Below, piece by piece: positions 38,325 to 62,563 of a stretch of 64,000 nucleotides of DNA. The stretch is from assembly GCA_035361425.1 (NCBI GenBank), contig DAOSCP010000001.1:275412-339411 (forward strand), written 5' to 3'. The notes beneath the pieces were generated by a model that had not been told where the DNA came from, did no database searches, and worked only from the letters and a program-made list of their open reading frames with translations. Made by a program: the position numbers and the translations under genes. The DNA is from Ignavibacteriales bacterium (GTDB taxonomy: Bacteria; Bacteroidota; Ignavibacteria; Ignavibacteriales; DAOSCP01). Position 1 is the stretch's first letter; every line of letters starts with the position of its first letter.

Positions 38325-40478
38325 TTAACTCTTTTTTGTTGCTATAACAATAAGTTTATCTGATGGCAATAAATTACCTACTTCAATATCCACAACAGCA
38401 AATACCTGAGATTCTTGCACCAACCCGGTCATATCAATAATTTTTGCGCCGTTAATAATAAAAATATCAGGAACAAGTGCACCTGCATCGCCAAATGTTG
38501 TTAATTGTTGAATAATATTGGAAATTTCCTGTTTTATAGTTTGCACATTTGTTTCCTTTACAATAGCATCGTTAAGCTGAAGTTTTATAGTTCCTTCGTT
38601 ATCAATAACTCTAACTGGATTTTTTTCTGTTTTAATCATACCCAAAAGGTATTTTTTAACATCGTGACAACTAAATACATTAATAAAATCATTTTTAGCA
38701 ACCAAATGAATAAAATTTTTATCTTTTTTAAATGATAAAGCTACAATACTCAGAAGCTCATCAGAAGTTAAATCCATAATTCTTAAATCTTTTGTTCTTA
38801 GTTCGCTATTTCCCATTGCGGTAGCGATAACTTTTTTATTTTTAGAATCTATCTCAATTTGCACTTCAACAGTTTCTGGAACAGCGCCCATTTTAATTAC
38901 GGAGTTACAGATTCCTGTCGTAATGCAATTAAATCGGCCTCGGTTGGATTGATAATATTTTTTTCAACGCTATCGCGTATCATTCCCAGAGCTGCACCAA
39001 TAGCAGAAATCACTTCACAATTCTGAGCTATTTCGTGTGGTATATTCATATGTTCAGACGCAAATGGCACAACAGCTGAAGCACCTCCACCGCCACCTAT
39101 AAATTTAATTAAACTCTTATCCAATTTATATTCTTTAATAAGTTGATGTATTACCGGCTCAACTTTGCCTGCTGTAATTTTACCAATAGTTTTTGCGATA
39201 TGTTCAGCCGTTGTATTCCATTTTTTTGCATTTGTTATCAAACAGCTTTTAATAGCATTAATATTACCAGCTCCGTGCCCAACTTCTTTAACTTTATTTA
39301 AATAATATGCCGCTGCCGTAGGAGTTATCGTATATTTTTTTCTTTTCCTTTGACATTTATAGCTAAATAATCTTTAGGATCTGATTTTGTTGGTTGAATA
39401 GCTTCAAGTTCGATATCCGTAAAATTATCAAAATCTGCAAAAGATGTATAACTTAAATTAGCAATATGAGCACTTCTTGGCCCTACATCTATTATTTTAT
39501 TGCCGCTAAATCGTGGCACAGAACCGCCACCAATTCCGATTGTTCGGACATCAAGAGTTCTTACATATAAACGATTGCCGCCAATTTGTGCAGATTTAAC
39601 CTGTGGTTTTCCATTCTTGATAACAGTTATATCTGTTGATGTACCACCGACCTCAAGGAAAATACCATCTGTGATTTTAGCATACATTAACGCAGCAGCA
39701 ACACCGGCAGCAGGACCAGAAAGCATTGTTAAAATTGGTCTTTTTCTCATTTCATCAATATTCATAATACCGCCATCGGATCTCATTACCATTAAAGGAG
39801 CATTAATATTAGTTTCTCTGATTGCTTTTTCTGTCATATTAGCAGTTTCAAGCATTTTTGGCATCATAGATGCATTAATTATTGCCGTTCTTGTTCTTAC
39901 CCTTAAACCATACAATTTAGAAATAGATGAAGCAGATGTAGCAAGCAACCCTTTCTTTTGAGCTATATCCACAATTATTAATTCATTAGCAGGATTTTCA
40001 ACTCCAAACGCTTCAGTTGCGACAATAACTTCGGCGCCCTCTTCAACTAATTCATCAATTAATTTGTTGATAATATCATCATTTAATTCGTTTGAAGTAT
40101 CAAAAAATCTGTATCTTATAGGTAAAAATTTTTGTGGCGCAAGCTCAATATTATTTAAATTCGTCTCTTTTTTAATTCTGAATTTTTCGATACCTTTTCC
40201 TAACCCAATTACTCCAACCGTTGCAACATCTCCTTCTAACAAAGAGTTTGTCGCTTGCGTTGTAGAGTGGGCAATCAAAATAATTTCATCTTTGTTAATT
40301 TTGTAATCTTCTAATAATTTGAAAAGGGAATCAACAACCCCTTTTGCTACACCTTCTTTTGCTGTGTGTGTGGAGGTACACAGGCTTTACCAACAATTGA
40401 ATAATCTTTAATATCAATTGCAACTGCGTGTGTGAAGGTCCCCCCGACATCAATTCCAATTTTGATTTTTTTCCCCAT
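38325..40478 (-). pseudogene. Hydantoinase/oxoprolinase-family (ASKHA fold) gene split by three frameshifts
   Basis: Four collinear pieces occupy three frames. They are [24 protein letters not shown]... (from 40478), ...[12 protein letters not shown]...[15 protein letters not shown]...GPAAGV...EVGGTSTD... (to 39325), [17 protein letters not shown]...FIGGGGGASAVVP... (to 38897), and VIKMGAVPETVEV... (to 38325). The frame changes are at a (TG)5 repeat (40363-40372), a T7 run (39335-39341) and near 38892-38900. Confidence 0.75.
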
Positions 40479-40682: not shown

Positions 40683-41642
40683 ATGGAAAATAATTATAAA
40701 TATCAAGAAAATTATCTCGATAACCTTATTTCCGACCATAATCTAATAGAAAAAGCTTTAATTTTGTTTGAAAAGGAAATCGCTAAAAACGAAATGGCAA
40801 ACAAAGAAATTTTACAATCTTTAATTTCTTTCATAGATGAATATGGCGATACATACCATAACCAAAAAGAAGAGCAATTTTACTTTCCTTTATTGTTACA
40901 AAAAGGTTTGCCCCCTATGGGACCTGTCAATGTTATGCTAATGGAACACCAGAATGAAAGAGAGCTAATCTCCGAAATTAAAAATTTAATCAATAAATTT
41001 GAAAATGAAAATATCTTTGATGAAAATCTTAATAATTTAATAAGAGATTTTTGCGAACTTACCAAAAATCACATATGGAAAGAAAATGATATTTTATATC
41101 CAATGGGCGCAAAATTATTAGATGAAAATGATAATAAATTTCTTATTGATAATTTTGAAAAACTAAGTCAAGAAAAATACGGTCAAGATCCTTACAAAAG
41201 ATTTTCTATTATGTTAGATTCGTTTGAAAAAAAACACGGGAATAAAATAGACCTCCTTGCAGAATTAAGTACAGATGTAATAAACAATATGATTGATGCT
41301 TTACCTGTTGAACTCTCATTTGTCGATGAAAACGATATTGTAAGATATTTTTCACACCAAAACAAAAAGAAGATTTTCCATCGCTCACTCGGAGTTGTTG
41401 GAAGAAAAGTGCAAAAATGCCATCCAGAAAAAAGCGTTCATCTTGTTAACCAAATTTTAGAAGAAATGAAAGCAGGAACTAGAGATTCCGCTGAATTCTG
41501 GATTAATTTCCAATCTATGTTTGTTCATATCTCATATTATGCCGTTCGTGATGAAAATGGTAAATATCAAGGTTGCGTTGAAATGGTACACGATATTTCA
41601 AAATACAGAAAATTAGAAGGCGAAAAAAGACTTTTGGGATAA
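40683..41642 (+). CDS. Hemerythrin-like / DUF438 / PAS-type sensor protein
   Basis: The N-terminal segment is a hemerythrin-like HHE region (H..KEE..FYFPLL...MLMEH). The C-terminal segment FVDENDIVRYFS...GRKVQKCHPEKSV...FWINF...YYAVRDENGKYQG matches the DUF438/PAS pattern as I remember it. Confidence 0.6.
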   Translation: MENNYKYQENYLDNLISDHNLIEKALILFEKEIAKNEMANKEILQSLISFIDEYGDTYHNQKEEQFYFPLLLQKGLPPMGPVNVMLMEHQNERELISEIKNLINKFENENIFDENLNNLIRDFCELTKNHIWKENDILYPMGAKLLDENDNKFLIDNFEKLSQEKYGQDPYKRFSIMLDSFEKKHGNKIDLLAELSTDVINNMIDALPVELSFVDENDIVRYFSHQNKKKIFHRSLGVVGRKVQKCHPEKSVHLVNQILEEMKAGTRDSAEFWINFQSMFVHISYYAVRDENGKYQGCVEMVHDISKYRKLEGEKRLLG

Positions 41643-41655
41643 CCCAAAAGTCTTT
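41626..41655. terminator. Bidirectional hairpin spanning the stops of two convergent genes
   Basis: A 13-bp perfect inverted repeat, AAAGACTTTTGGG-ataa-CCCAAAAGTCTTT. Confidence 0.6.
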
Positions 41656-42241
41656 ATTTCATTATAATTAATATATTTGTTGTAAACATTTTTATCGATA
41701 TCGCCAACAATATCACCCCAAAAAACCTTCTTAAAATATTTAACACCGATTGTGATATTAAACGATTTATCGATGTAATATATTTTAAAACTACAAATAC
41801 AAAAAGCATATTTACTAATAATCCTATAAAAATGTTTATCACACTATATTCTGCCCGTAATGAAAGAAATGTTGTTAAACCGCCAGGTCCAGCTATTAAA
41901 GGAAACGCAACAGGGAAATAAGTTGCATCTTGTGTATTACCTTCTGTTTTTATGATTTCTATCCCTAATATCATTTCCATCGCCAAAATAAAAATTACAA
42001 TCGAACCAGCAACAGCAAATGACGGAACATCAACCTTAAACATTCCAAGTATTGCATCCCCTAAAAAGAAAAAAACAGCATAAAGAAAAAATGAAAATAA
42101 ACACGATATTAACGATTTATAAATTATTTTTCGTGATACAAAATCTAATAAGATTGGAACTGAACCCAAAATATCAATTATTGCAAACATTATAATTGTT
42201 GTACTGATTATCTGCGTAAAGTTAATATCTCCCAAATGCAT
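41654..42241 (-). CDS. MarC-family (UPF0056) integral membrane protein
   Basis: 195 aa with about 6 TM segments. The motifs FAIIDILGSVPI and FPLIAGPG are typical of the MarC family. Confidence 0.65.
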   Translation of the reverse strand: MHLGDINFTQIISTTIIMFAIIDILGSVPILLDFVSRKIIYKSLISCLFSFFLYAVFFFLGDAILGMFKVDVPSFAVAGSIVIFILAMEMILGIEIIKTEGNTQDATYFPVAFPLIAGPGGLTTFLSLRAEYSVINIFIGLLVNMLFVFVVLKYITSINRLISQSVLNILRRFFGVILLAISIKMFTTNILIIMK

Positions 42242-42261
42242 ATTATAATTCCTTTATTTTT

Positions 42262-43257
42262 TTACAAATTATTTGAATTTTGCAAATCATCAAACAAACT
42301 ATTACCTATTTCTGGTTCCTTTAAATTATCAAAATCAAAACCATTTTTTCTATAAAATTTTGAATTTTGAAAAGCTTCTTCTGGATTTTTATTTGCATAA
42401 CAATAAATGCATCCATGTGGGCAACTATTAAAATATCCAATATCTTTTGCATCATAACACAAACACCCCTCACGAGTTGGTTTTTTATCATAACACAAAA
42501 AATCATCTTTTACTATATATTTTATTAAATTAAGATCAATGCAGCTGGTAGATTTTATATCAATTTTATCGGTCAGTGTCGGTTCTGTGCATATTTCTAA
42601 AGTTAGATTGAATTCATCAGCTATTTTCTTTAATTTTTTTAATATTGAAATTTGCTTTTCAATCGATGGTTCATAAAACTGTATTTGTTTCTCTCTATAA
42701 GCTTGATAAAAATTCTGTTTTGTTTTTTCGTAAAAATCGACAAAACTTGTAATACATTTATTAACCATTGGAGATAAAATTTTTGCAAGTTCATAAAATT
42801 TATCATAGATATACAACTCAGTTGTTATTGATGAAAGAATAATTGGATCAAATCTCCATTGCACATAATGCTTACCATATCTTTTTGCAAGATACTCGAC
42901 AGTCTTAATAACAAAATCTAATTTTGGATTTCTGATTTCTAATTCTTTTGGTTGCCCATTGATTGTAATATGCATATAATGAGCTTTATTGTAATTATCA
43001 TCGATATAATTTAAATATTTCAATAGAGGATAAGGATTTCTTGTCCAGAAAACAAAAGCAGTAACAGCCTCTGGTCTCAGATTTGTATAAATAGGCTTTT
43101 TAGAAAACGGATTAGGATAGTAAACATATCCAACTTTAAGTCTATTGTAAAACCAATCAGCATAGTAAGCTGGGATATCAGTTCTTCTACTAACACTTAT
43201 AATTTTTTTCATAGTATTTTTTAATTTTTCTTTGAAATATATTGAAATTCTATACAA
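42262..43257 (-). CDS. DUF1848-family protein (Cys-cluster, possible Fe-S)
   Basis: It has SVSRRTDIPAYYADWFYNRL near the N-terminus and a C-terminal CPHGCIYCYAN. The likely true start is the Met at 43212 (MKKIISVS...). Confidence 0.6.
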   Translation of the reverse strand: MYRISIYFKEKLKNTMKKIISVSRRTDIPAYYADWFYNRLKVGYVYYPNPFSKKPIYTNLRPEAVTAFVFWTRNPYPLLKYLNYIDDNYNKAHYMHITINGQPKELEIRNPKLDFVIKTVEYLAKRYGKHYVQWRFDPIILSSITTELYIYDKFYELAKILSPMVNKCITSFVDFYEKTKQNFYQAYREKQIQFYEPSIEKQISILKKLKKIADEFNLTLEICTEPTLTDKIDIKSTSCIDLNLIKYIVKDDFLCYDKKPTREGCLCYDAKDIGYFNSCPHGCIYCYANKNPEEAFQNSKFYRKNGFDFDNLKEPEIGNSLFDDLQNSNNL

Positions 43258-43422
43258 CTCTACAACATTTTTTATATAACATTATTCATATGTTAAAATT
43301 ATTTGTAATATTTTTTCAATAATTAAAAACTTAATTTAAAAATATTATTTTTATTTATTAATTTCAAGTTTAATTTTAATTTATCTAACAATAAAATAAT
43401 CAAATTAAATTATGAGGAAATA

Positions 43423-43579
43423 ATGCCTGCAACAACTAAAAAAGACTAAAAAAGTATGTCAAAGATGTAAAAAAGAAAAACTTCTTTCAGAATTTTACCA
43501 TAATACAACCAAATCAGATAAACATAATGGCATCTGTAAACAATGCCAGGACGATGTAAAAAAAGTAATAGATAAGTAA
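43423..43579 (+). pseudogene. Small zinc-ribbon ORF (CxxC...CxxC) with a start and body in different frames
   Basis: GAGGAAATA-ATG at 43423 gives MPATTKKD then TAA. The +1 frame from about 43424 gives ...KKTKKVCQRCKKEKLLSEFYHNTTKSDKHNGICKQCQDDVKKVIDK with a stop at 43577-43579. That frame has no ATG, GTG or TTG start. Confidence 0.45.
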
Positions 43580-43602
43580 AAATCATATCCTATAAGTGTA
43601 TT

Positions 43603-43659
43603 AGAAGTTTAAATTTCATTGGCAACTAAATTATCCCACCTTTGAATATTTAAACTTCT
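43603..43659. repeat. Perfect 12-bp inverted repeat with a 33-nt spacer
   Basis: The arms are AGAAGTTTAAAT (43603-43614) and ATTTAAACTTCT (43648-43659). No U-run follows on either strand. Confidence 0.7.
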
Positions 43660-43738
43660 CACTAAAAAAAATTTATATAAGTATCAATAGATGATACCGT
43701 TAAACCTTTAAATTTGTATAAAAAAAATTATTTAGCTT

Positions 43739-44050
43739 ATGAAAAAGAATTTATTAAAAAATTTAAGAAATGGAATTATTTTTGTAGGAAACAGCATTAA
43801 TTTAATAGAAGAAAGTAACTTTCAGGTTCCATAAAAAATTATTCTATTTCATGGACTTGATGTTGTTGAAACTGATAATTATTTTCTTCAATACAATAAT
43901 GAAAATAGAGATTTAAATGGAAAAGAAATAACTATTTCCAATGATGAATCTATAAAAATAAAAAGGAAAACTAATAAAAGTTGATGAAAAAACTGTTGAA
44001 GAAAATAGGCTGGAAACAAATTCATACTATATTACTATCGATAGAAACAT
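43739..44050 (+). pseudogene. ORF remnants upstream of, and in frame with, the Hsp70-like gene
   Basis: The ATG at 43739 gives MKKNLLKNLRNGIIFVGNSINLIEESNFQVP, then TAA at 43832-43834, then KIILFHGLDVVETDNYFLQYNNENRDLNGKEITISNDESIKIK. From 43962 to 44069 a different frame is open (KGKLIKVDEKTVEENRLETNSYYITIDRNI). This is either a separate small gene or a decayed N-terminal extension. Confidence 0.35.
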
Positions 44051-45969
44051 ATGCCATCTCAAAATAAATTAGATCACAATTTCAATTTTAAATTATACAT
44101 TGATGATGAATTTAAATATATAAACTTAAAAATAGAAAAAGCTGAAGAAACAGAATCTGTATTATGTATAGATTTTGGTACAAGTAATACAACTACCGGC
44201 ACTCAATTCGCTGGAACTAAAAATAAAAAATTAAAGAAACTTTGTAAAGGTGAGTTTAATTATGTTAGATTTAAAAATAATACCAATGAAACTGAAGTAT
44301 TTATTCCAACAATTATGTTAACATATGATTTTAATGATACAGATAAAAAATTCATTATAGGCTATGAAGCACAAAAGATGATTGAAGAAGCAGATTTCAT
44401 TCCTAAAGGAACAATTATAACCAACTTAAAAAAGCTATTAAATAAAATTGATGATACACAAACCCTTTACGACCAAAATAGAACTCGCGAGAAAGTTAAG
44501 AATTCAGAACTTGTTAAATACTTTATTGATTATATAATTAAATAGGTTTATTTTTAAATTCTGACAGAATTTACACAAAATATTACTTTACATTTCCTGT
44601 AAAATTTCCAGAAGATGTAAGAAATAAGATAAAAATATCTTTCAAAAGAGGATTATTAAGAAGTATTCCATATAGTATTATTGATGAAAACTTTATAGAA
44701 AACTTTATAGTTGCATATCAAGGAACAGAACTAATAGCATATTTTATTAAAGCATTAAGAGTTTATAACTTAACGGATGATGAATTTAATTTTGCTATCT
44801 TCGATTTTGGTGGTAGTACATCCGATTTTGCTTTTGGAAAATATAGACCTTCTAACGAAAAAGAAGAAGAAAATAATATTTATTATGTTATAAGTATATC
44901 TGATATGGGAGGAGACTAATATTTAGGGGGCAAAAATATATTAAATAACTTAGCCTATCTTACTTTTAAGGAAAATATATCCTTATGTAGAGAATTAGAT
45001 ATCCCATTTGTATGACCGGACAATGTTTCTGAAGACGTGGCAAAATTTTTCTTAGATGAATCAACCGCTGCTTATGCTAATATGTCAATTATGCGAAATG
45101 TATTGAGGGAATTCTGGATAAATTTAGGAAAAGCTTCCGATTTTTACATCCCTCCAATACCAGTACAAAATTTTCTAAATAAAAAAGGTGAAAATATAAC
45201 CGATACAGAAAATAACACTATTTCTATACCTGTTGACATATTAAAAGAATGGACTTATAATAGAATATTAGATGGAATTAAAGAATTTCTTGGTGGATTT
45301 AAGCAAGCATTTAAGAATATAAAAAAAGATGAACCAGTGCATGTGTTTTTATCAGGCAATGCAAGTAAATCATTAGTTCTTCAGGCAATTATGGATGCTT
45401 TATTTAATGATGGTAATAATCTTGATAGCAGTAAATATTCAGATGACCTAATTGATTTTGCAACAAATTCAGCCAAAATTGAAAACTTCAATTACAAAAT
45501 TGAATATCACCTACCTTTAATTAATGAAGATAACGATTACAATAAACCAAATTGTAAAACTGCTACTGCTTTAGGTCTTTTAGAACTTTGTACATACGAG
45601 GAAAATTATAAAATTGACGATAAAACGCAAAACAAGAAATACTTCATATTGGGAACACGTATAAGAGATAATTTTAAAATTATAATTAAAGATGCAAAAT
45701 CTGAGTGGTATGATTTTGGTAAAGTAAGTAATACAACTAAGTGTATTAACATATTTTATACTAATAAAGATAGTATTCTTCTTGAGGATAATATAAGCTA
45801 TGACGATAATAGATTATCTAGAACAGAATTAAATTATGAAGATAAAAGAAAAGATTTAAGATGTTTTATCAAACCTATAGATAACAGTAAAATTCAATAT
45901 ACTTTTGCTTTAACTGAAGAAGATATTAATGAAAAAAACATAAAAAAATTAGAATTAAAATTTAATTAA
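44051..45969 (+). pseudogene. Hsp70/actin-fold (ASKHA) ATPase-like protein, about 640 codons, disrupted
   Basis: The phosphate-1 motif is VLCIDFGTSNTTTG, the phosphate-2 motif is FAIFDFGGSTSDFAFG, and the third motif is VHVFLSGNASKSLVLQAI. The reading needs a -1 correction at 44540-44542. It contains an in-frame TAA (44917-44919, MGGD*YLGG) and an in-frame TGA (45013-45015, IPFV*PDN). Track ORFs 44051..44545 and 45037..45969 are its two ends. Confidence 0.7.
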
Positions 45970-45979
45970 GGTGTAAATT

Positions 45980-46915
45980 ATGTTATTAGTAGATTTATTA
46001 AAATTTCTCATACCAACAGACTTATTCCAGGTATTTTTTCTTTCTTATTTTACTTGGTTTAGGTCTGTGGAATTATTTATCAATTAAAAAGCAAGCTATT
46101 CCAGAAAATTGGGAATATAATTGAGCTAGCGGCACTAAAAATAATGATAATGATTTAGATTCTGAACATGGCTCACTTATTGAATTAAGCCCAGCTATCG
46201 CAACTAAAGCAGAAAAATGGGCTGATATGATACCCGGTATTATGTTGATAACTGGCTTATTTAGAACTTTTATTGGATTAGGTATAGCTTTGAATAAAGT
46301 TTTTTAATTCTTACCAATGCTCAAAGCGGTGATTTTAATACTTTGATGAATAATCTTATGCAAATGATGGAAGGATTGGGCACAAAGTTTAAAACTTCAA
46401 CCTGGGGTATAATAGGCTTTTTAGTATATAAAACTATTATCTATCTCAACGGTTTTGAAGAAAGAAGATTGCGATGGGTTATTATCAAAATGAAAAAGGA
46501 ATTCGACTCAGTTAATTATAAAAAAACCTTTAAAAATCTGATTTTTGAAAAAAGTAGTGCTAAAATTAGTCCCAAAGTAAAAGAAATATTCATACAAACA
46601 CAACCGCGTAAAAAAGAGTTTTTACAAAAAGTTCCTATTGGTAAAATTTATATTGATGGTCACACAGATAATGAACCAGTACCATATCCAATAACAGATT
46701 TTCAAAGATACGGTGCTGTTTATGATGATAATTATACTCTTTCTCCAGCACAAGCAAGAGAAGCAAGAAACATTTTAGTAGGTAACCTGGACGAAGAGCT
46801 ATCAAGGTATATTATTGTAGCAGGCTATTACTCTTCGATTCCTTTAGATCCTAAAAATCCTGCTGCTGATATAAATAGACGAGTAGAAATAAGGTTTGTA
46901 GTTGAATATAATTGA
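45980..46915 (+). pseudogene. MotA/ExbB/TolQ-like channel fused to an OmpA/MotB-like peptidoglycan-binding domain, disrupted
   Basis: AAGGTG precedes the ATG at 45980. The reconstructed protein is MLLVDLLKFLIPTDLFQVFFFLILLGLGLWNYL...WADMIPGIMLITGLFRTFIGLGIALNKVFLILTNAQSGDFNTLMNNLMQMMEGLGTKFKTSTWGIIGFLVYKTIIYL. It then continues in the same uninterrupted ORF (46343..46915) with KIYIDGHTDNEP...YTLSPAQAREARNIL...NRRVEIRF. The lesions are T6 runs at 46034-46039 and 46300-46305 (frame changes) and a TGA at 46122-46124. Confidence 0.6.
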
Positions 46916-46927
46916 GGGTAAAATAGT

Positions 46928-47215
46928 ATGAACAAGTTTCTCAAAATAATTTTTCTTTTTTCTGCGGCTATGTTATTTTTAGGTATATTTAATCAGCCAA
47001 CTGTTTTTTATAAATACTTGAGATTTATAATAACAGTTGGAGCTTTAGTTGGAATTTATAATGAATTTGATAAAAATTCTTATTTCTGGATAATTTCCTT
47101 TTTGATAATTGCAGTTTTATTTAACCCAATTTTTCCTGTTTACTTATAAAAAAAAATTTATTGGATATTTATCGATTTAATTTCCGGAATTTTATTTGCT
47201 GTTAAAGCATTTTAG
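46928..47215 (+). pseudogene. DUF6804-like small membrane protein with an in-frame TAA
   Basis: It reads MNKFLKIIFLFSAAMLFLGIFNQPTVFYKYLRFIITVGALVGIYNEF...AVLFNPIFPVYL, then TAA at 47147-47149, then KKIYWIFIDLISGILFAVKAF and TAG. The post-stop segment continues the family pattern (NP..P..L....W..ID) as I remember it. Confidence 0.5.
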
Positions 47216-47243
47216 GTAAAATAATCTTTATTGAAAAATATAT

Positions 47244-47603
47244 TTAATCTAATGGATAAACTTCATAAACCCACATTATATCATCAAAATCAACATATAG
47301 GTGGAGCTTATCATTTTGAGAATATAATCTTACACATCTAACATCACATATTAGCCCATCTTCATTTACATATTTCCATTTAATAATAAGATCTCCATCC
47401 TCGTCATATTTTTCTGAAAATTTTGTAACTATGTCATAAACTTGTTGCTTAGCACTAAATATTTTTATTCTTTCTTTATCTGTATTTACAATAATAAGAA
47501 CATTTTTAGGCTCCCAACTACTCCAATCAGACCACTTTTTAGTACTTTCATTTCTTACTCTTATTGATAAAGCACTAGATTTTAATTTAAATACTTCTGC
47601 CAT
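47244..47603 (-). CDS. Hypothetical small protein (119 aa), intact
   Basis: An ORF with no recognisable motifs. It is convergent with the island operon. Confidence 0.5.
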   Translation of the reverse strand: MAEVFKLKSSALSIRVRNESTKKWSDWSSWEPKNVLIIVNTDKERIKIFSAKQQVYDIVTKFSEKYDEDGDLIIKWKYVNEDGLICDVRCVRLYSQNDKLHLYVDFDDIMWVYEVYPLD

Positions 47604-55549: not shown

Positions 55550-56278
55550 TCAAATTGTTCTATTTATAAATTTTTTAACAACTTTATCTTCAGAATTTAA
55601 CAAATCATCAAAAGAACCATCGAAATGTACATTACCATTATAAAGCATAACCACTCTTTTAGAAATCTTTTTTACTGATAGCATATCATGTGTTACAACA
55701 ATGGATGTTACTTTTAACTGTTCATTTAAATTTGCAATTAAGTCATCTATAGCATCAGATGTTATAGGATCTAATCCTGTTGTAGGTTCATCATAAAATA
55801 TGTATTTTGGGTTAGTTATTAGGGCTCTTGCTAATCCAACTCTTTTTTTCATACCTCCAGAAAGTTCTGAAGGTTTTAATTTTTCTATACCAGGTAATTT
55901 AACTAAATCTAATTTTTCTGAAACAAGTTTTTTTATCTCTTTTGTAGTATATTTATAATTATTTTCTATTAAAGGTAAAGCAATATTTTCCTCAACAGTG
56001 ATAGAATCAAATAGGGCTGCTCCTTGAAATAAAAAACCAAATTTTTGCCTTATTGAATAAAGTTTTTTTTGTGAAAGATTTGTTATATCAATTCCATCAA
56101 TAAATATTCTACCTTCATCTGGTTTAAGTAAACCTACAATGTTTTTTAATAAAACACTTTTACCGCAACCACTACTACCTATTATAGCTAAAGATTCACC
56201 TGTTTGAATCTCAAGATTTATATTTTCTAAAACAATTTTATCATTAAAACTTTTTTTAATTTTTTCAATTTTTATCAT
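55550..56278 (-). CDS. ABC transporter ATP-binding protein (second MlaF-like copy)
   Basis: It has GSSGCGKS, LSGGMKKR and FYDEPTTGLD. Confidence 0.8.
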   Translation of the reverse strand: MIKIEKIKKSFNDKIVLENINLEIQTGESLAIIGSSGCGKSVLLKNIVGLLKPDEGRIFIDGIDITNLSQKKLYSIRQKFGFLFQGAALFDSITVEENIALPLIENNYKYTTKEIKKLVSEKLDLVKLPGIEKLKPSELSGGMKKRVGLARALITNPKYIFYDEPTTGLDPITSDAIDDLIANLNEQLKVTSIVVTHDMLSVKKISKRVVMLYNGNVHFDGSFDDLLNSEDKVVKKFINRTI

Positions 56279-56279
56279 A

Positions 56280-56600
56280 TAAAATTACAATTTAATAATT
56301 ACAAAAATAAATAATTTTTTTTTAAGATTTTAAAAAATAAGAGTAATAGTAATTGAATTAATATTGTGGATTGTGGATAAGTTTTTTATGTAATTGAAAA
56401 ACAAAAAAATACGAAATTAAATTATCCTAAAGTTATCCACATTGTATGTGAATAAGAAATAAGTAATAAACATTCAACAGAGAGAAAAAATAAAATTTTT
56501 AACATGTTGAAAAATAATAAGTTAACAACAAATTTATCCACAAAAATAACTTAAAAATGTTGATAATTTATGTATTTATTCACAAGTTATCCACATTTAA
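56280..56600. other. Candidate chromosomal replication origin (oriC): DnaA-box cluster plus an AT-rich stretch
   Basis: Perfect TTATCCACA boxes lie at 56433-56441, 56534-56542 and 56587-56595 (plus orientation) and at 56372-56380 (TGTGGATAA, reverse orientation). Degenerate boxes lie at 56365-56373 (TGTGGATTG) and 56422-56430 (TTATCCTAA). 56280-56365 is almost pure A/T. dnaN-recF-gyrB-gyrA lie 1.5 kb to the right. Confidence 0.75.
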
Positions 56601-57880
56601 AAAGTACGTGTTTGTAGATATAAAGCGATTTTTTTGGCTAATTTTTCTTGTTCTTTCCAATTCCCGTGAATAATTTTTTTTGGAACAAGTTCATTTATAA
56701 TTTTTTGTATTTTGGTATCGATTGTTCCAGCGTTTGCTTTAGAAAAAGGAGTTTGTGGAAGTGGCATAAAAGTATGAGCGTGTATTCTTGCACCTAAATT
56801 GACTAAATCTTTCATTGTTTTTATTGTAAGAAAAATATCTTCTTCTGTTTCACCTGGTAATCCAAAAATAAAATCTACATTAGGAATAAAACCAGCTTTA
56901 ACAGAAGATTTTACAGCATTGTAAACATCCACTACTGTATGGCCTCTGTGACAAAGATCTAAAATCTTCTGACTTCCTGATTGAGCACCTATTACAATAT
57001 TATCGTTAGCAGCGTATTTTTTTAATAAAGAAATAGTTTCATCATTAATGTGTTCAGGTCTAACTTCGGACGGAAAAGAACCAATAAATATTTTTCCTTC
57101 TTGCCCCATACACTCTTTTATTGATTTTAGAAAGGTTTCTAAAGTATCCAAATTGATTGTTTTACCATCCTGAGAACCATAACTAAATGCGCTAGGAGTA
57201 ATAAATCTAAGATAAGTGAAATTATATTTACTTAAAATTTTTACATATTCGATTATTTTTTCGATGCTTCTGTGTCTTACTTTTGCTTTGAATAACTGTG
57301 GTGTTTGGCAGAAATAACAAACAGATGAACAACCACGGGTAATTTCAAGTGGTCCAATTCTATAATATTTTAAAGAAAAAGGTTTGTATTTATTTAAATC
57401 AACAAAATCTCTATGACCATTAAAAATGAAATTGTTATCATCATCCAAATAAGCAATACCTTTGATTGTTTTGTAATTATCATTAAGGTCAAATTTTTTT
57501 AATAATTCAATTAAAGTTTCTTCGCCCTCGCCACAAATAACTAAATCAAATCCCATTTTTAATGTACCTTTTGGGTCGCCTGAAGGATGAGGTCCGCCAG
57601 CTATTGTTAATATTTTACTTTTTAAGTTAGATGAGTTTATTAAAGAAATAATTTCGTAAGTTTCCCAAATTTGAGTTGTAAAAAAAGAAAATGCTAAAAT
57701 GATTTTTTTATGTTTTTCGAGTAAAGTTTCAAGATCTGATATTATTGAATTTTTATTTTTGATAAAATAAATATTCAAATCTTCAAAATATTCATCACTT
57801 TCTAATGTACCTAAGAGAGAATTAATAGTATATTTGTTAAATTTAGTTGTGTAAAAAGCTAAAGCGAAGTTGGTTTGCAT
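56597..57880 (-). CDS. B12-binding-domain / radical SAM protein
   Basis: It has the GCSSVCYFC (CxxxCxxC) cluster and an N-terminal Rossmann-like B12-binding-type domain. Confidence 0.75.
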   Translation of the reverse strand: MQTNFALAFYTTKFNKYTINSLLGTLESDEYFEDLNIYFIKNKNSIISDLETLLEKHKKIILAFSFFTTQIWETYEIISLINSSNLKSKILTIAGGPHPSGDPKGTLKMGFDLVICGEGEETLIELLKKFDLNDNYKTIKGIAYLDDDNNFIFNGHRDFVDLNKYKPFSLKYYRIGPLEITRGCSSVCYFCQTPQLFKAKVRHRSIEKIIEYVKILSKYNFTYLRFITPSAFSYGSQDGKTINLDTLETFLKSIKECMGQEGKIFIGSFPSEVRPEHINDETISLLKKYAANDNIVIGAQSGSQKILDLCHRGHTVVDVYNAVKSSVKAGFIPNVDFIFGLPGETEEDIFLTIKTMKDLVNLGARIHAHTFMPLPQTPFSKANAGTIDTKIQKIINELVPKKIIHGNWKEQEKLAKKIALYLQTRTF

Positions 57881-58102
57881 ATTTAATAATAAATATTGAA
57901 AATTAAGAAAACAAAACTAAAAAAAATATTAGAGTAATAAAAATGTATTTATGAGATGAACATATAATGTCAATAGAAAGGTTGAAAAAAACAACAATAA
58001 TAAAGTTAAAAATTTCTTCTAAACATTTAGAAACACTATTTTAATTTGTTTTTTAACAAAAAAAAACTTAAATTTAAAAGTTATAAATATAAGGATATTG
58101 AT

Positions 58103-59218
58103 ATGGAATTCGAAGTAAAATCATCCGTATTTAATGAAATTTTATCAAATGTTATTCCTGCTATCCCTACTAAAACAACACAACCAATTTTAACAAATTT
58201 TTTATTTGAAATTACGGATGGAGTGCTAAATGTATCCGCAACAAATGGTGATATGACAATAAGATCTAAGACGGATATTTTTTCAACCGAAAATATATCT
58301 TTTTGCTTACCTGCCAAACTTTTATATGAAACTATAAAAAATGTTTTATCAACAGAAAATTTAAAGTTTGTATTCAAAGAAAATCATAAACTTATAATAC
58401 ATGCTGGAAGAGGTGAATATAAATTTACATATATAGATGCTAATGAATATCCTAAAATTCCTATCGCAATAGATGAAAGTTTTACAGAAATAAATGGATT
58501 ATTGTTAAAAACATTTATCCAAAAAACATCTTTTGCTGTTGCTTCGGAAGATGATACAAGAGTTGCTATGACAGGTATTTTGTTTGATTTCGATAATAAT
58601 AAACTAAAAGTTGTAGCAACAAACGGACATCTTTTAGGAAAGTATGAAAAAGATCTCGAAAATATCGATTTTAGTTCTCAATATATTGTTCCAGCCAAAG
58701 CAACAGATGCTTTATTAAAAGTTTTAACAGATAAAACAGTAAAAATTATTTTCCAACACGGAAGTATAAAATTTTTAATGGGCAATTATGAGTTAACAAC
58801 AAGAATAATTAATGCAAAATATCCCGATTACAATACTGTTATACCAAAAGAAACAAAATACGAAATGATAATTAATTCTGGGCAGTTAAGAACAGCTATA
58901 AAAAGATTGTTAGTATATGCAACAGGAGAAACAAAGAAAATAGTATTGACATTAGGAGATAATAAAATAATCATCAAAGCCTATAATGAACTTAATGCAG
59001 CTGAAGGTGTTGAAGAAATAGATTGTCAATATAGCGATACACCGTTTGATATCTCTTTTAACGGTGGAAATTTGGAAAAAGTTCTTTCTCAATTTGATGG
59101 AGAAGATATTGTATTTAAAATGAATTCTCCTGATAGAACAGTTTTAATAAAATCCACAAATGAAGTTGAAGGAGAGGATTTTCTAATTCTTACAGTTCCT
59201 TTGAGAATAAATAAATAA
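58103..59218 (+). CDS. dnaN: DNA polymerase III beta sliding clamp
   Basis: The start at the ATG at 58103 (MEFEVKSSVFNEILSNV...) follows AAGGA. The track start at 58046 adds a Lys-rich extension. The length and three-domain pattern fit DnaN, and recF follows. Confidence 0.88.
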   Translation: MEFEVKSSVFNEILSNVIPAIPTKTTQPILTNFLFEITDGVLNVSATNGDMTIRSKTDIFSTENISFCLPAKLLYETIKNVLSTENLKFVFKENHKLIIHAGRGEYKFTYIDANEYPKIPIAIDESFTEINGLLLKTFIQKTSFAVASEDDTRVAMTGILFDFDNNKLKVVATNGHLLGKYEKDLENIDFSSQYIVPAKATDALLKVLTDKTVKIIFQHGSIKFLMGNYELTTRIINAKYPDYNTVIPKETKYEMIINSGQLRTAIKRLLVYATGETKKIVLTLGDNKIIIKAYNELNAAEGVEEIDCQYSDTPFDISFNGGNLEKVLSQFDGEDIVFKMNSPDRTVLIKSTNEVEGEDFLILTVPLRINK

Positions 59219-59219
59219 A

Positions 59220-60314
59220 ATGGTTTTAAATAATCTTATACTTAAAAATTTTAGGTTACACATAAATACAGAATTGAAACCAGCTGAAAGAGTGAATCTG
59301 ATAGTTGGAGAAAATGCTCAAGGCAAAACTTCATTACTCGAAGCAATTTATTTAATTTGTACAACAAAAAGTTATTTAACAAATTATTTAAGCGAAATTG
59401 TAAATTATAATTCGTTAAATTTTGAAGTTGAAGCTAATTTAACAACTTTAACTAATAATAAATTAAGAATATTTTTCGATAAACAAGAAAATAAAAAATA
59501 TATTTTTAGAGATGATAAAAATATCAAAAATCCTATGGAATACATAGGATTTTTTCCTGTTATATTACTAACTCCAGATGACCACGAAATAACAAAAGGA
59601 ACTCCAAAAAATAGAAGAAAATTCGTTGATGGTTTCTTATCCCAAATTAAGCCTAATTATTTAAATAATTTAATAGATTATAATAACATAATAAAAAACA
59701 GAAGTGTTTTATTAAATAAATACAAAGAAACAAGAGAAAAATATATTTTTGATGAATTAATTTTATGGACCGAACGATTAGCAAATGTTGGTGAATATAT
59801 TACACAAGAAAGAATTGAATGGATATCTAGTTTTAATAAATATCTTGAAGAAATTTATAATAGAATTATTGAAAAAAAAGAACAACCCAAAATTGAGTAT
59901 AAGCTTAGCTATAATGGAAAATCGTTAAAAGAGCATTTGTTTAATAATCTCGAAACTGAAATTAATAAAGCTCAAAACTTGTATGGACCTCATAGGGATG
60001 ATTTGCTATTTTTTATAAATAATTACGAATTGAAAGTTTACGGCTCACAAGGACAGCATAAAACATTTTTAACAAGTTTGAAATTTGCACAGTATTTTTA
60101 TTATAGAGATTTATTTAACAAGGATTCAATATTTTTAATGGATGATGTTTTTGGCGAATTAGATAGCACTCGCTCTCAAATGATAGCGGAATATTTAAAT
60201 CAAATAGGACAAGCTTTTATAACAATTACAGATTTTAGTAATTATAAATTCCTAAGAAATTTTACTAACGATGCTATATTTCAAGTTCAAAATGGGGTTG
60301 TAACTCTCAAATGA
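59220..60314 (+). CDS. recF: DNA replication/repair protein RecF
   Basis: It has the GENAQGKTS Walker A, and GSQGQHKT and LMDDVFGELD motifs. Confidence 0.9.
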   Translation: MVLNNLILKNFRLHINTELKPAERVNLIVGENAQGKTSLLEAIYLICTTKSYLTNYLSEIVNYNSLNFEVEANLTTLTNNKLRIFFDKQENKKYIFRDDKNIKNPMEYIGFFPVILLTPDDHEITKGTPKNRRKFVDGFLSQIKPNYLNNLIDYNNIIKNRSVLLNKYKETREKYIFDELILWTERLANVGEYITQERIEWISSFNKYLEEIYNRIIEKKEQPKIEYKLSYNGKSLKEHLFNNLETEINKAQNLYGPHRDDLLFFINNYELKVYGSQGQHKTFLTSLKFAQYFYYRDLFNKDSIFLMDDVFGELDSTRSQMIAEYLNQIGQAFITITDFSNYKFLRNFTNDAIFQVQNGVVTLK

Positions 60315-60586
60315 AAAGCATCGGAGAAATTATAAGAAATTCGCCAGAATTTTCAAAAATAAGATTTTATTTATTTGCTGAACAAGTAATCAATAAATTT
60401 TTTGAATATTTTCCTGAGTATAAAGAATATATTTGCTCTATAAAATTAGATGATAAGAAATTATTTATCTATGTAGAAAATGCTACAGCAAAAGCAAGTA
60501 TTAAAGAAAATCAAAAAGAGATAATAGAAAAAATAAATAAAAGTTTTAACCAGATTGTAATAGAAAAAATAACATTTGATGTATAA
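60311..60586 (+). CDS. DUF721-domain (DciA-like) small protein
   Basis: 91 aa in the conserved position between recF and gyrB, with a 4-nt overlap with recF. The pattern ...KLDDKKLFIYVENATAKASI...IIEKIN... resembles DUF721. Confidence 0.6.
   Translation: MKSIGEIIRNSPEFSKIRFYLFAEQVINKFFEYFPEYKEYICSIKLDDKKLFIYVENATAKASIKENQKEIIEKINKSFNQIVIEKITFDV

Positions 60587-62563
<1,977 letters not shown>

Follow-up and report, generated by a model that had tools for sequence, protein, structure and literature searches.

Whether a run of broken reading frames is the remnant of one divergent chaperone-like ATPase or debris from several genes is the question raised by a locus at 43.79–46.92 kb in a 64,000-nucleotide (nt) window assigned to an Ignavibacteriales population of metagenome-assembled genomes (MAGs). 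The initial annotation had read the locus as a single gene for an Hsp70/actin-fold ATPase of about 640 amino acids (aa) carrying three lesions, namely a -1 frame change at an AAA run (44540-44542), a TAA at 44917 and a TGA at 45013. Every statement it made at the level of the sequence was reproduced (coordinates are positions in the window, and coding sequence is read with genetic code 11). The open reading frame (ORF) at 44051-44545 on the forward strand codes for 164 aa, carries VLCIDFGTSNTTTG and stops at a TAG (44543-44545). The frame that starts at 44542 (ATA GGT TTA..., one base back and hence -1) reads IGLFLNSDRIYTKYYFTFPVKFPEDV, later FAIFDFGGSTSDFAFGKY, and runs from IGLFLNSDRIYTKYYFTFPVKF to FAIFDFGGSTSDFAFG, MGGD*YLGG, PFV*PDN (asterisks are stops), VHVFLSGNASKS and KTATALGLL before closing at a TAA at 45967-45969; its sole interruptions are the TAA at 44917-44919 and the TGA at 45013-45015. 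The middle segment at 44542-45036, absent from the list of ORFs and proposed to encode the core of the fold, does contain the phosphate-2 motif. The reading of these frames as one gene fared differently. With a probability of about 0.9, the locus is a non-functional, decaying relic of a horizontally acquired island.

The sequence repaired across the three lesions, 639 aa long, retrieves 293 database homologues (best E 2e-154), nearly all of them unannotated proteins of 880-1000 aa, and has no Pfam match at E ≤ 1 and no PADLOC match. When the best of these homologues were aligned to the window by tblastn, 44542-45957 alone aligned, and it did so with residues 420-893 of P0001, a protein of 893 aa (53.6% identity, E 2e-152). 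P0001 and its family are here designated B. The match of the 5′ ORF to B-type proteins is confined to the phosphate-1 motif (E ≥ 0.008). P0001 and P0002 are encoded on contigs L001 and L003, and on both contigs a second large gene, designated A (972 aa in L001, 977 aa in L003), lies 2 kb upstream of B. This Hsp70-like gene accounts for the 5′ part of the locus: tblastn aligns residues 244-487 of the L001 protein with 43805-44542 (46.6% identity, E 5e-51) and residues 240-490 of the L003 protein with 43790-44542, and a short stretch at 43980-44048 matches A in another frame. When the 164-aa ORF was searched exhaustively with phmmer, A-type proteins alone came back (132 matches, mostly of 850-1150 aa), the best full-length match, its own strain variant aside, being to residues 326-486 of the 972-aa protein (E 1.5e-41). 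Similarity passes from A-derived to B-derived at 44542, and what had been taken for a frameshift at the AAA run is the scar of a deletion of ~4.9 kb that joined A to B and cost A everything from residue 488 to its end at 972, B its first 419 residues, and the cluster the two genes between them. The features, all on the forward strand, are as follows.

43790..44542 (+), A remnant: A residues ~240-487, with the phosphate-1 motif VLCIDFGTSNTTTG; includes the listed ORF 44051-44545
44537..44547 (+), A/B deletion junction: ATT AAA TAG GT, which reads as a -1 frame change; ~4.9 kb lost
44542..45969 (+), B remnant: B residues 420-893 of 893; includes the listed ORF 45037-45969
44917..44919 (+), TAA that interrupts B within its GD-x-(F/L)LGG motif, in frame
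45013..45015 (+), TGA that interrupts B farther on, in frame

The B remnant carries in succession the phosphate-2 motif FDFGGSTSDF, the interrupted GGD*YLGG, the adenosine region VFLSGNASKS...KTATALGLL and a C-terminal domain. A and B are paralogous families (hhalign profile-profile probability 96.4%) in which A486/487 stands opposite B420/421, and a junction at such equivalent positions of both folds gives the concatenation the appearance of a single complete ATPase with the full motif set. It is this mimicry that would support a single divergent and repairable gene of ~640 aa whose inactivation, through a one-base deletion and two nonsense mutations, was recent: phosphate-1, phosphate-2 and adenosine motifs follow one another in the right order and spacing, and the whole query retrieves ~900-aa homologues, some at 91-98% query coverage. 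Such a gene is nevertheless exceedingly unlikely. The closest relatives of the two halves differ, and in the intact clusters these are separate genes 2 kb apart. Homologues of both families have 850-1150 aa and large N-terminal regions that are absent here, and the N-lobe of B, conserved family-wide (P0001 versus P0013 of Acinetobacter), is unmatched by the 5′ ORF. Upstream of the ATG at 44051 lie two extra frame changes and several stops (breaks at 43975-44050); since similarity to A extends through them to ~43790, that ATG is not a real start. The repaired protein is without the ~240-330-aa N-terminal regions found in both parent families (~240 aa of the A N-terminus and 419 aa of B are missing here) and probably never existed as a working protein. 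The claim that all nucleotide-binding motifs are present thus holds for the concatenation, where the set is complete only by juxtaposition of the pieces of two genes.

Microhomology in the DNA at the A/B junction does not exceed a few AT-rich bases, and the junction lies within 1-2 residues of structurally equivalent positions despite this minimal similarity. Either homology-assisted recombination between the paralogues or a once-functional hybrid selected before decay could lie behind this position.

The frame change adjoins an A-run and the window derives from a MAG, features that would fit an artefact in which paralogues were mis-joined during assembly or homopolymer errors were introduced. 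The chance of this is vanishingly small. Three independent assemblies (ENA, JGI and NCBI) of different samples, with contigs of up to 477 kb, agree base for base through the relic over a 12.5-kb region; the same junctions recur in separately assembled, diverged strains, the A/B junction being identical in one of them, L012; and the 164-aa ORF has index entries in 63 collection blocks. From the identity across independent assemblies it follows that the lesions are biological, and sequencing error was rejected. The two in-frame stops are likewise genuine, since the rest of the window carries long intact ORFs under code 11; an alternative genetic code or recoding was ruled out by these genes together with the derivation of the halves from two different genes. 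Intact homologues have Ser (AGT) at the site of the TAA at 44917, where the family consensus is variable, and Cys (TGC or TGT) at the site of the TGA at 45013, so that a single base change suffices for the latter.

The neighbouring gene, initially annotated as a MotA::OmpA fusion, is also a deletion artefact, made from separate ZorA-like and ZorB-like genes. After B, contigs L001 and L003 encode a MotA-like protein of 520-540 aa with a long coiled-coil tail and then a MotB/OmpA-like protein of 211 aa. The intact MotA-like parent of L001 matches PADLOC ZorA (E 7e-13) and NCBIfam antiphage_ZorA_1 (E 5e-8, below cutoff), and the OmpA-like parent matches PADLOC ZorB (E 8e-22) and Pfam OmpA; both neighbours score below the NCBIfam cutoffs. 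The window retains the following.

45980..46501 (+), ZorA/MotA-like remnant: residues 1-175 of the 520-540-aa parent, with two frame changes and two stops
46499..46915 (+), ZorB/MotB/OmpA-like remnant: residues 76-211 of the 211-aa parent, at 65-67% identity (E ~1e-60)

With the 520-aa protein of L001 as the tblastn query, the first remnant is recovered in three pieces in frames 2, 3 and 2 at 62-72% identity. ZorA residues 1-175 are joined to ZorB residues 76-211 at 46499-46501, in frame, through a deletion of ~1.3 kb, and the repaired fusion of these truncated copies matches PADLOC ZorB at E 3e-7 and ZorA at E 6e-6. The likeness to Zorya lies in the MotA-like gene with its long coiled-coil tail and the MotB/OmpA-like gene after B in L001 and L003. 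The differences are that PADLOC scans of L001 cluster proteins and of the window pieces gave no match to ZorC, ZorD, ZorE, ZorF or ZorG, that the scores stay under the NCBIfam cutoffs, that ZorAB stands beside B in only 2 of the 84 loci with a B homologue (L001 and L003), and that the window genes are truncated and fused.

Comparison with two strains ~98-99% identical to the window, L012 and L174, yields small counts that bear on the state of the locus. Both junctions (A/B and ZorA/ZorB) are common to the two strains, and L174 has gained further lesions: a CAA codon at 45166 has become the stop TAA, a 1-bp indel is present at 46306, and an insertion of 1 bp at 46547 breaks the in-frame ZorA::ZorB fusion. 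Nonsynonymous to synonymous (N:S) substitutions between strains number 6:1 for the A ORF, 2:0 and 9:3 for B and 12:1 for ZorB. They add up to 29:5, where neutrality would predict a site ratio of 4.25:1. The OmpA piece of the window has lost conserved residues that L174 and intact homologues retain. Neither an uninterrupted full-length frame nor purifying selection, as expected of a functional gene, was found at the locus.

A further explanation is that the A/B hybrid or some of the fragments, such as the C-terminal 310-aa piece of B or the ZorA-N::OmpA fusion, are still expressed or useful through frameshifting, readthrough or domestication. The position of the A/B junction at homologous points of the fold, the in-frame ZorA::ZorB fusion in the window and the persistence of the ORFs across many samples would be in keeping with such use. 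We regard it as very unlikely, as the summed N:S ratio is at or above neutral expectation, the sister strain L174 has both an extra stop in the region of the 310-aa ORF and the fusion-breaking indel, the 310-aa piece is without both phosphate motifs, no slippery heptamer is found at the A/B junction, and TAA and TGA end other genes of the window.

Several observations weigh against a decaying relic. The ORFs of 164, 310 and ~185 aa are long for neutral sequence at 26% GC, all three are annotated as hypothetical proteins in MAGs, and in the window the ZorA and ZorB pieces are joined without a shift of frame. A junction within 1-2 residues of homologous positions is improbable for a random deletion (roughly 0.5%, by our estimate), and a transiently functional A/B hybrid is conceivable. 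The substitution counts are small, and divergence between the strains is uneven, with 1 substitution in 2.5 kb of the PAS/MarC/DUF1848 genes and ~1% divergence also in the intact DUF6804 flank; as this intact flank is diverged too, raw divergence is weaker evidence than the N:S ratio. In coordinates, 40683-43257 (PAS/hemerythrin, MarC and DUF1848 genes) shows 1 substitution in 2.5 kb relative to L012 and L174, and within 43258-47337 the relic is ~1-3% diverged, as against ~1% for the DUF6804 gene, which is intact, and for the sequence past it. This unevenness may mark the edge of a recombination tract in addition to relaxed selection.

It was observed directly which homologues the pieces derive from, where the junctions lie, that strains have them in common and that substitutions follow a neutral pattern; the order of events, and an ancestor with the full L001-like gene set, we infer. 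On the reading as a decaying relic, an ancestral island like the intact clusters of L001 and L003 would have held, in order, genes for an Hcp-like protein, a VgrG-like protein, two unknowns, a PAAR-like protein, A, a 246-aa protein, a coiled-coil protein, B, a ZorA-like protein and a ZorB-like protein. All sequence 5′ of A residue ~240 would have been lost first, followed by the 4.9-kb deletion that joined A (after ~487) to B (from ~420) out of frame, and then by the 1.3-kb deletion that fused the N-terminal part of the ZorA-like protein with the C-terminal part of the ZorB-like one. Nonsense point mutations and indels of 1 bp would have come later, and they continue to accumulate. By falling within paralogous nucleotide-binding domains (NBDs), the first junction would have produced the mimic of a single ATPase, with phosphate-1 from A and phosphate-2 and adenosine motifs from B. 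No working product is expected from the relic. Searches of the window by tblastn to E 5 detected none of the VgrG, PAAR, 246-aa, coiled-coil and 182-aa genes of the cluster.

What kind of proteins, then, were the parents? The call of an Hsp70/actin fold was borne out. An AlphaFold model of the intact B homologue P0001, built on an alignment of 58 sequences (pLDDT 87.2, pTM 0.84), retrieves DnaK, Hsc70, BiP, mortalin and Ssb from the PDB with Foldseek (best E 3e-19). The top 50 listed matches are Hsp70s or complexes that contain one, at 11-16% identity and over alignments of ~650 columns, including DnaK constructs with the β subdomain of the substrate-binding domain (SBD-beta). For profiles of the two families searched against the PDB, Hsp70 NBDs are the only matches and marginal ones (E 0.002 for the B family, E 0.0008 for A), no Pfam HSP70 (PF00012) match was obtained with intact A or B, and matches to the NCBIfam DnaK and HscA models score 13-26 bits against cutoffs above 330. 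Matches of A to SrfB (E 0.048) and PDC-M61B (E 4e-4) are local to the phosphate-2 motif and were treated as non-specific. Together, the predicted structure and the profiles indicate that both parent families are Hsp70-fold proteins. Neither reaches the curated Hsp70 thresholds, and hence neither is DnaK, HscA, HscC or YegD, in agreement with the earlier description of the locus as divergent; no Pfam, NCBIfam or PADLOC model captures either family.

The initial annotation had also described a C-terminal region of ~200 aa of unknown fold in place of an SBD. This is doubtful and probably wrong, as modelling points to a beta-sandwich there.

45592..45966 (+), predicted C-terminal beta-sandwich of B: ~120 aa, eight strands

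AlphaFold modelled the window's own C-terminal segment, aligned with 29 homologues, as these eight strands with a pLDDT of 86.2. Six of its seven best Foldseek matches in the PDB are Hsp70 SBDs (Ssb1, the DnaK C-terminus 4r5g, mortalin and DnaK), which fall short of significance (E 0.05-0.4, TM 0.35-0.47), and no helical lid appears in the model of this segment or that of P0001. The domain is probably a divergent SBD-beta-like domain of the Hsp70 kind that lacks the lid. It is conserved across the B family regardless of MotA/OmpA neighbours, contrary to the suggestion that it might be conserved together with a MotA::OmpA gene.

The parents thus share with canonical Hsp70s (DnaK, HscA, HscC and YegD; PF00012) a two-lobed, actin-like NBD with phosphate-1 (IDFGTS), phosphate-2 (DFGGGTTD) and adenosine motifs, and a beta-rich domain after the NBD; the best structural matches of intact B are DnaK, Hsc70 and BiP (E ~1e-17 to 3e-19). 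A J-domain gene adjoins A in 17 of 31 well-flanked loci, and a functional coupling of the two is putative. The differences from canonical Hsp70s are N-terminal extensions of 240-350 aa, some with Lcl_C/DUF1566, the absence of a helical lid, the absence of a GrpE gene from the neighbourhoods examined and, in the window, the survival of fragments only. Divergent Hsp70-like units in multi-gene operons have been described elsewhere. CnuD and CnuCD of type III CoCoNuT systems are Hsp70-like NBD/SBD modules tied to McrBC-type GTPases (PMC11090510), and the HSP70 components of DO-GTPase systems in Actinobacteria and Firmicutes accompany DO-GTPase/GAP1 with GrpE and DnaJ (PMC7159879). These systems resemble ours in that organization, and some B loci lie beside restriction-modification genes; they differ in that the partners of A and B are Hcp/VgrG/PAAR proteins, HerA-like ATPases, dynamin-like GTPases or ZorAB. 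Both were judged to be different systems, CnuD being set apart by its description rather than by sequence.

Confirmed metagenome loci of the intact A family number at least 398, and 80 of them were analysed. The family belongs to a strikingly conserved module of 10-16 genes, which was scanned with Pfam and NCBIfam on the proteins of L001, L093 and L111, together with precomputed Pfam lists, over +/-10 kb. In order, the module encodes a ~720-aa protein, the Hcp-like protein, the J-domain protein, two FHA proteins, two PP2C phosphatases, the ~426-aa and ~232-aa proteins, A, the ~258-aa protein, the VgrG-like protein and a DUF4280/PAAR toxin with Imm11-like immunity. Counts of its components come from the 31 loci with good flanks.

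Hcp-like protein (weak TssD match): 29/31
PP2C phosphatases (two per module): 27/31
~426-aa protein: 27/31
~258-aa protein: 27/31
~232-aa protein: 26/31
~720-aa protein: 25/31
FHA proteins (two per module): 23-24/31
VgrG-like protein (Phage_base_V E 5e-13, Phage_GPD): 23/31
J-domain protein (DnaJ E 9e-22): 17/31
DUF4280/PAAR toxin with Imm11-like immunity gene (DUF4280-AHH toxins among them): 14/31

Gene for gene, the module is conserved between a Firmicute chromosome (L093, accession CP020559.1) and L001, and in at least five loci (L001, L003, L140, L147 and L151) it is followed by B. Examples are L093:2310-13559, L111:658-21751 and L001:1-8594, with ~30 further metagenome loci among L094-L173.

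In its Hcp-like and VgrG-like proteins, PAAR/DUF4280 toxins and FHA and PP2C proteins (compare the threonine-phosphorylation regulators of the Fha and PppA type), the A module recalls type VI secretion systems (T6SSs). It differs in occurring in a Firmicute (L093), in carrying an Hsp70-like ATPase and a J-domain protein, and in having no recognised sheath, baseplate or ClpV: no Pfam or NCBIfam match to TssB/C, TssE/F/G/K or ClpV was obtained within +/-10 kb, where several module proteins have no detectable family. Nothing informative came from sequence searches of the PDB with c8 and c3, two proteins of the module. A survey from 2021 recorded Phage_GPD genes beside DUF4280 genes in Firmicutes devoid of T6SSs and extracellular contractile injection systems and speculated about an unknown translocation system (PMC8651086). 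In the literature we found no description of the A or B family, nor of Hsp70-like or J-domain components of the A module. A would probably act as a J-domain-stimulated Hsp70-type ATPase, and may load, unfold or assemble an Hcp/VgrG/PAAR-toxin spike, a handling that would be subject to FHA/PP2C phospho-threonine control, as in T6SS regulation.

The B family comprises at least 414 confirmed genome loci, 79 of which were analysed, in Gamma- and Betaproteobacteria, Magnetococcales, Selenomonadaceae and others. Its proteins are always ~900 aa long and paired with a small upstream partner. In the commonest operon, genes for a HerA/DUF87-like ATPase of ~1050 aa and for proteins of ~230, ~280 and ~260 aa precede B, often in two tandem copies, and an alternative operon holds three dynamin-like GTPases. 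Examples of these B operons, with a HerA/DUF87-like ATPase labelled 'serine-rich' or with dynamin-like GTPases, are L014:3654-15022, L020:656-12025, L055:3577-14637, L006 and L007. Restriction-modification genes of type I or type III adjoin B in Acinetobacter and Moritella loci, and no J-domain gene was seen beside members of the family or in the window. For B, as for A, we infer the mechanism only: B would probably use its SBD-like domain and a variable N-terminal domain, which is Lcl_C-like in some members, to bind a ligand or partner, and would couple ATP turnover to membrane-associated partners, be they HerA-like, dynamin-like or ZorAB. Neither mechanism is at work in the window. It is enticing to speculate that the relic is the fossil of two systems, a chaperone-powered export route for polymorphic toxins represented by the A module, which Firmicutes and other phyla carry, and a B-based anti-phage or conflict module; we put this forward tentatively, at somewhat less than even odds.

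Other features of the window include a small zinc-ribbon ORF (43423-43575, forward strand) just upstream of the A remnant. Its counterpart at L012:4988-5131 encodes 47 aa (MPATTKKVCQRCKKEK...CKQCQ) with weak Stc1/double-zinc-ribbon matches, and relative to L012 the window copy is disrupted by a 10-bp insertion and a 1-bp deletion. Some 4 kb from the relic, a hydantoinase/oxoprolinase A gene on the reverse strand (38897-40278) is split into an ORF of 317 aa with the N-terminal domains and one of 114 aa with the C-terminal part; the boundaries of these ORFs vary between strains (L011, L012), and the gene is probably a second pseudogene. Farther along, at 56000-62563, cumulative GC skew reaches a minimum at ~56-58 kb, immediately upstream of dnaN (58046-59218), which is followed by recF (59220-60314) and gyrB (60605-62563). 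No dnaA adjoins dnaN; the gene upstream lies on the opposite strand and encodes a B12-binding radical SAM enzyme. The arrangement suggests that 56-58 kb is the region of the chromosomal replication origin.

The feature in the window is therefore an ordinary but instructive pseudogene relic, and its parent families are Hsp70 variants that belong to systems apparently not described before. It cautions that a deletion joining paralogous pseudogenes at equivalent positions of a fold can yield a complete motif set, and that the three 'hypothetical proteins' annotated here in MAGs are fragments of dead genes. It also points to two widespread Hsp70-fold families, with at least 398 loci for A and at least 414 for B, that curated models have missed. 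If the A operon does prove to be a secretion apparatus, it would constitute a new mechanistic class, and the A module would answer how the PAAR/VgrG toxins of Gram-positive bacteria leave the cell.

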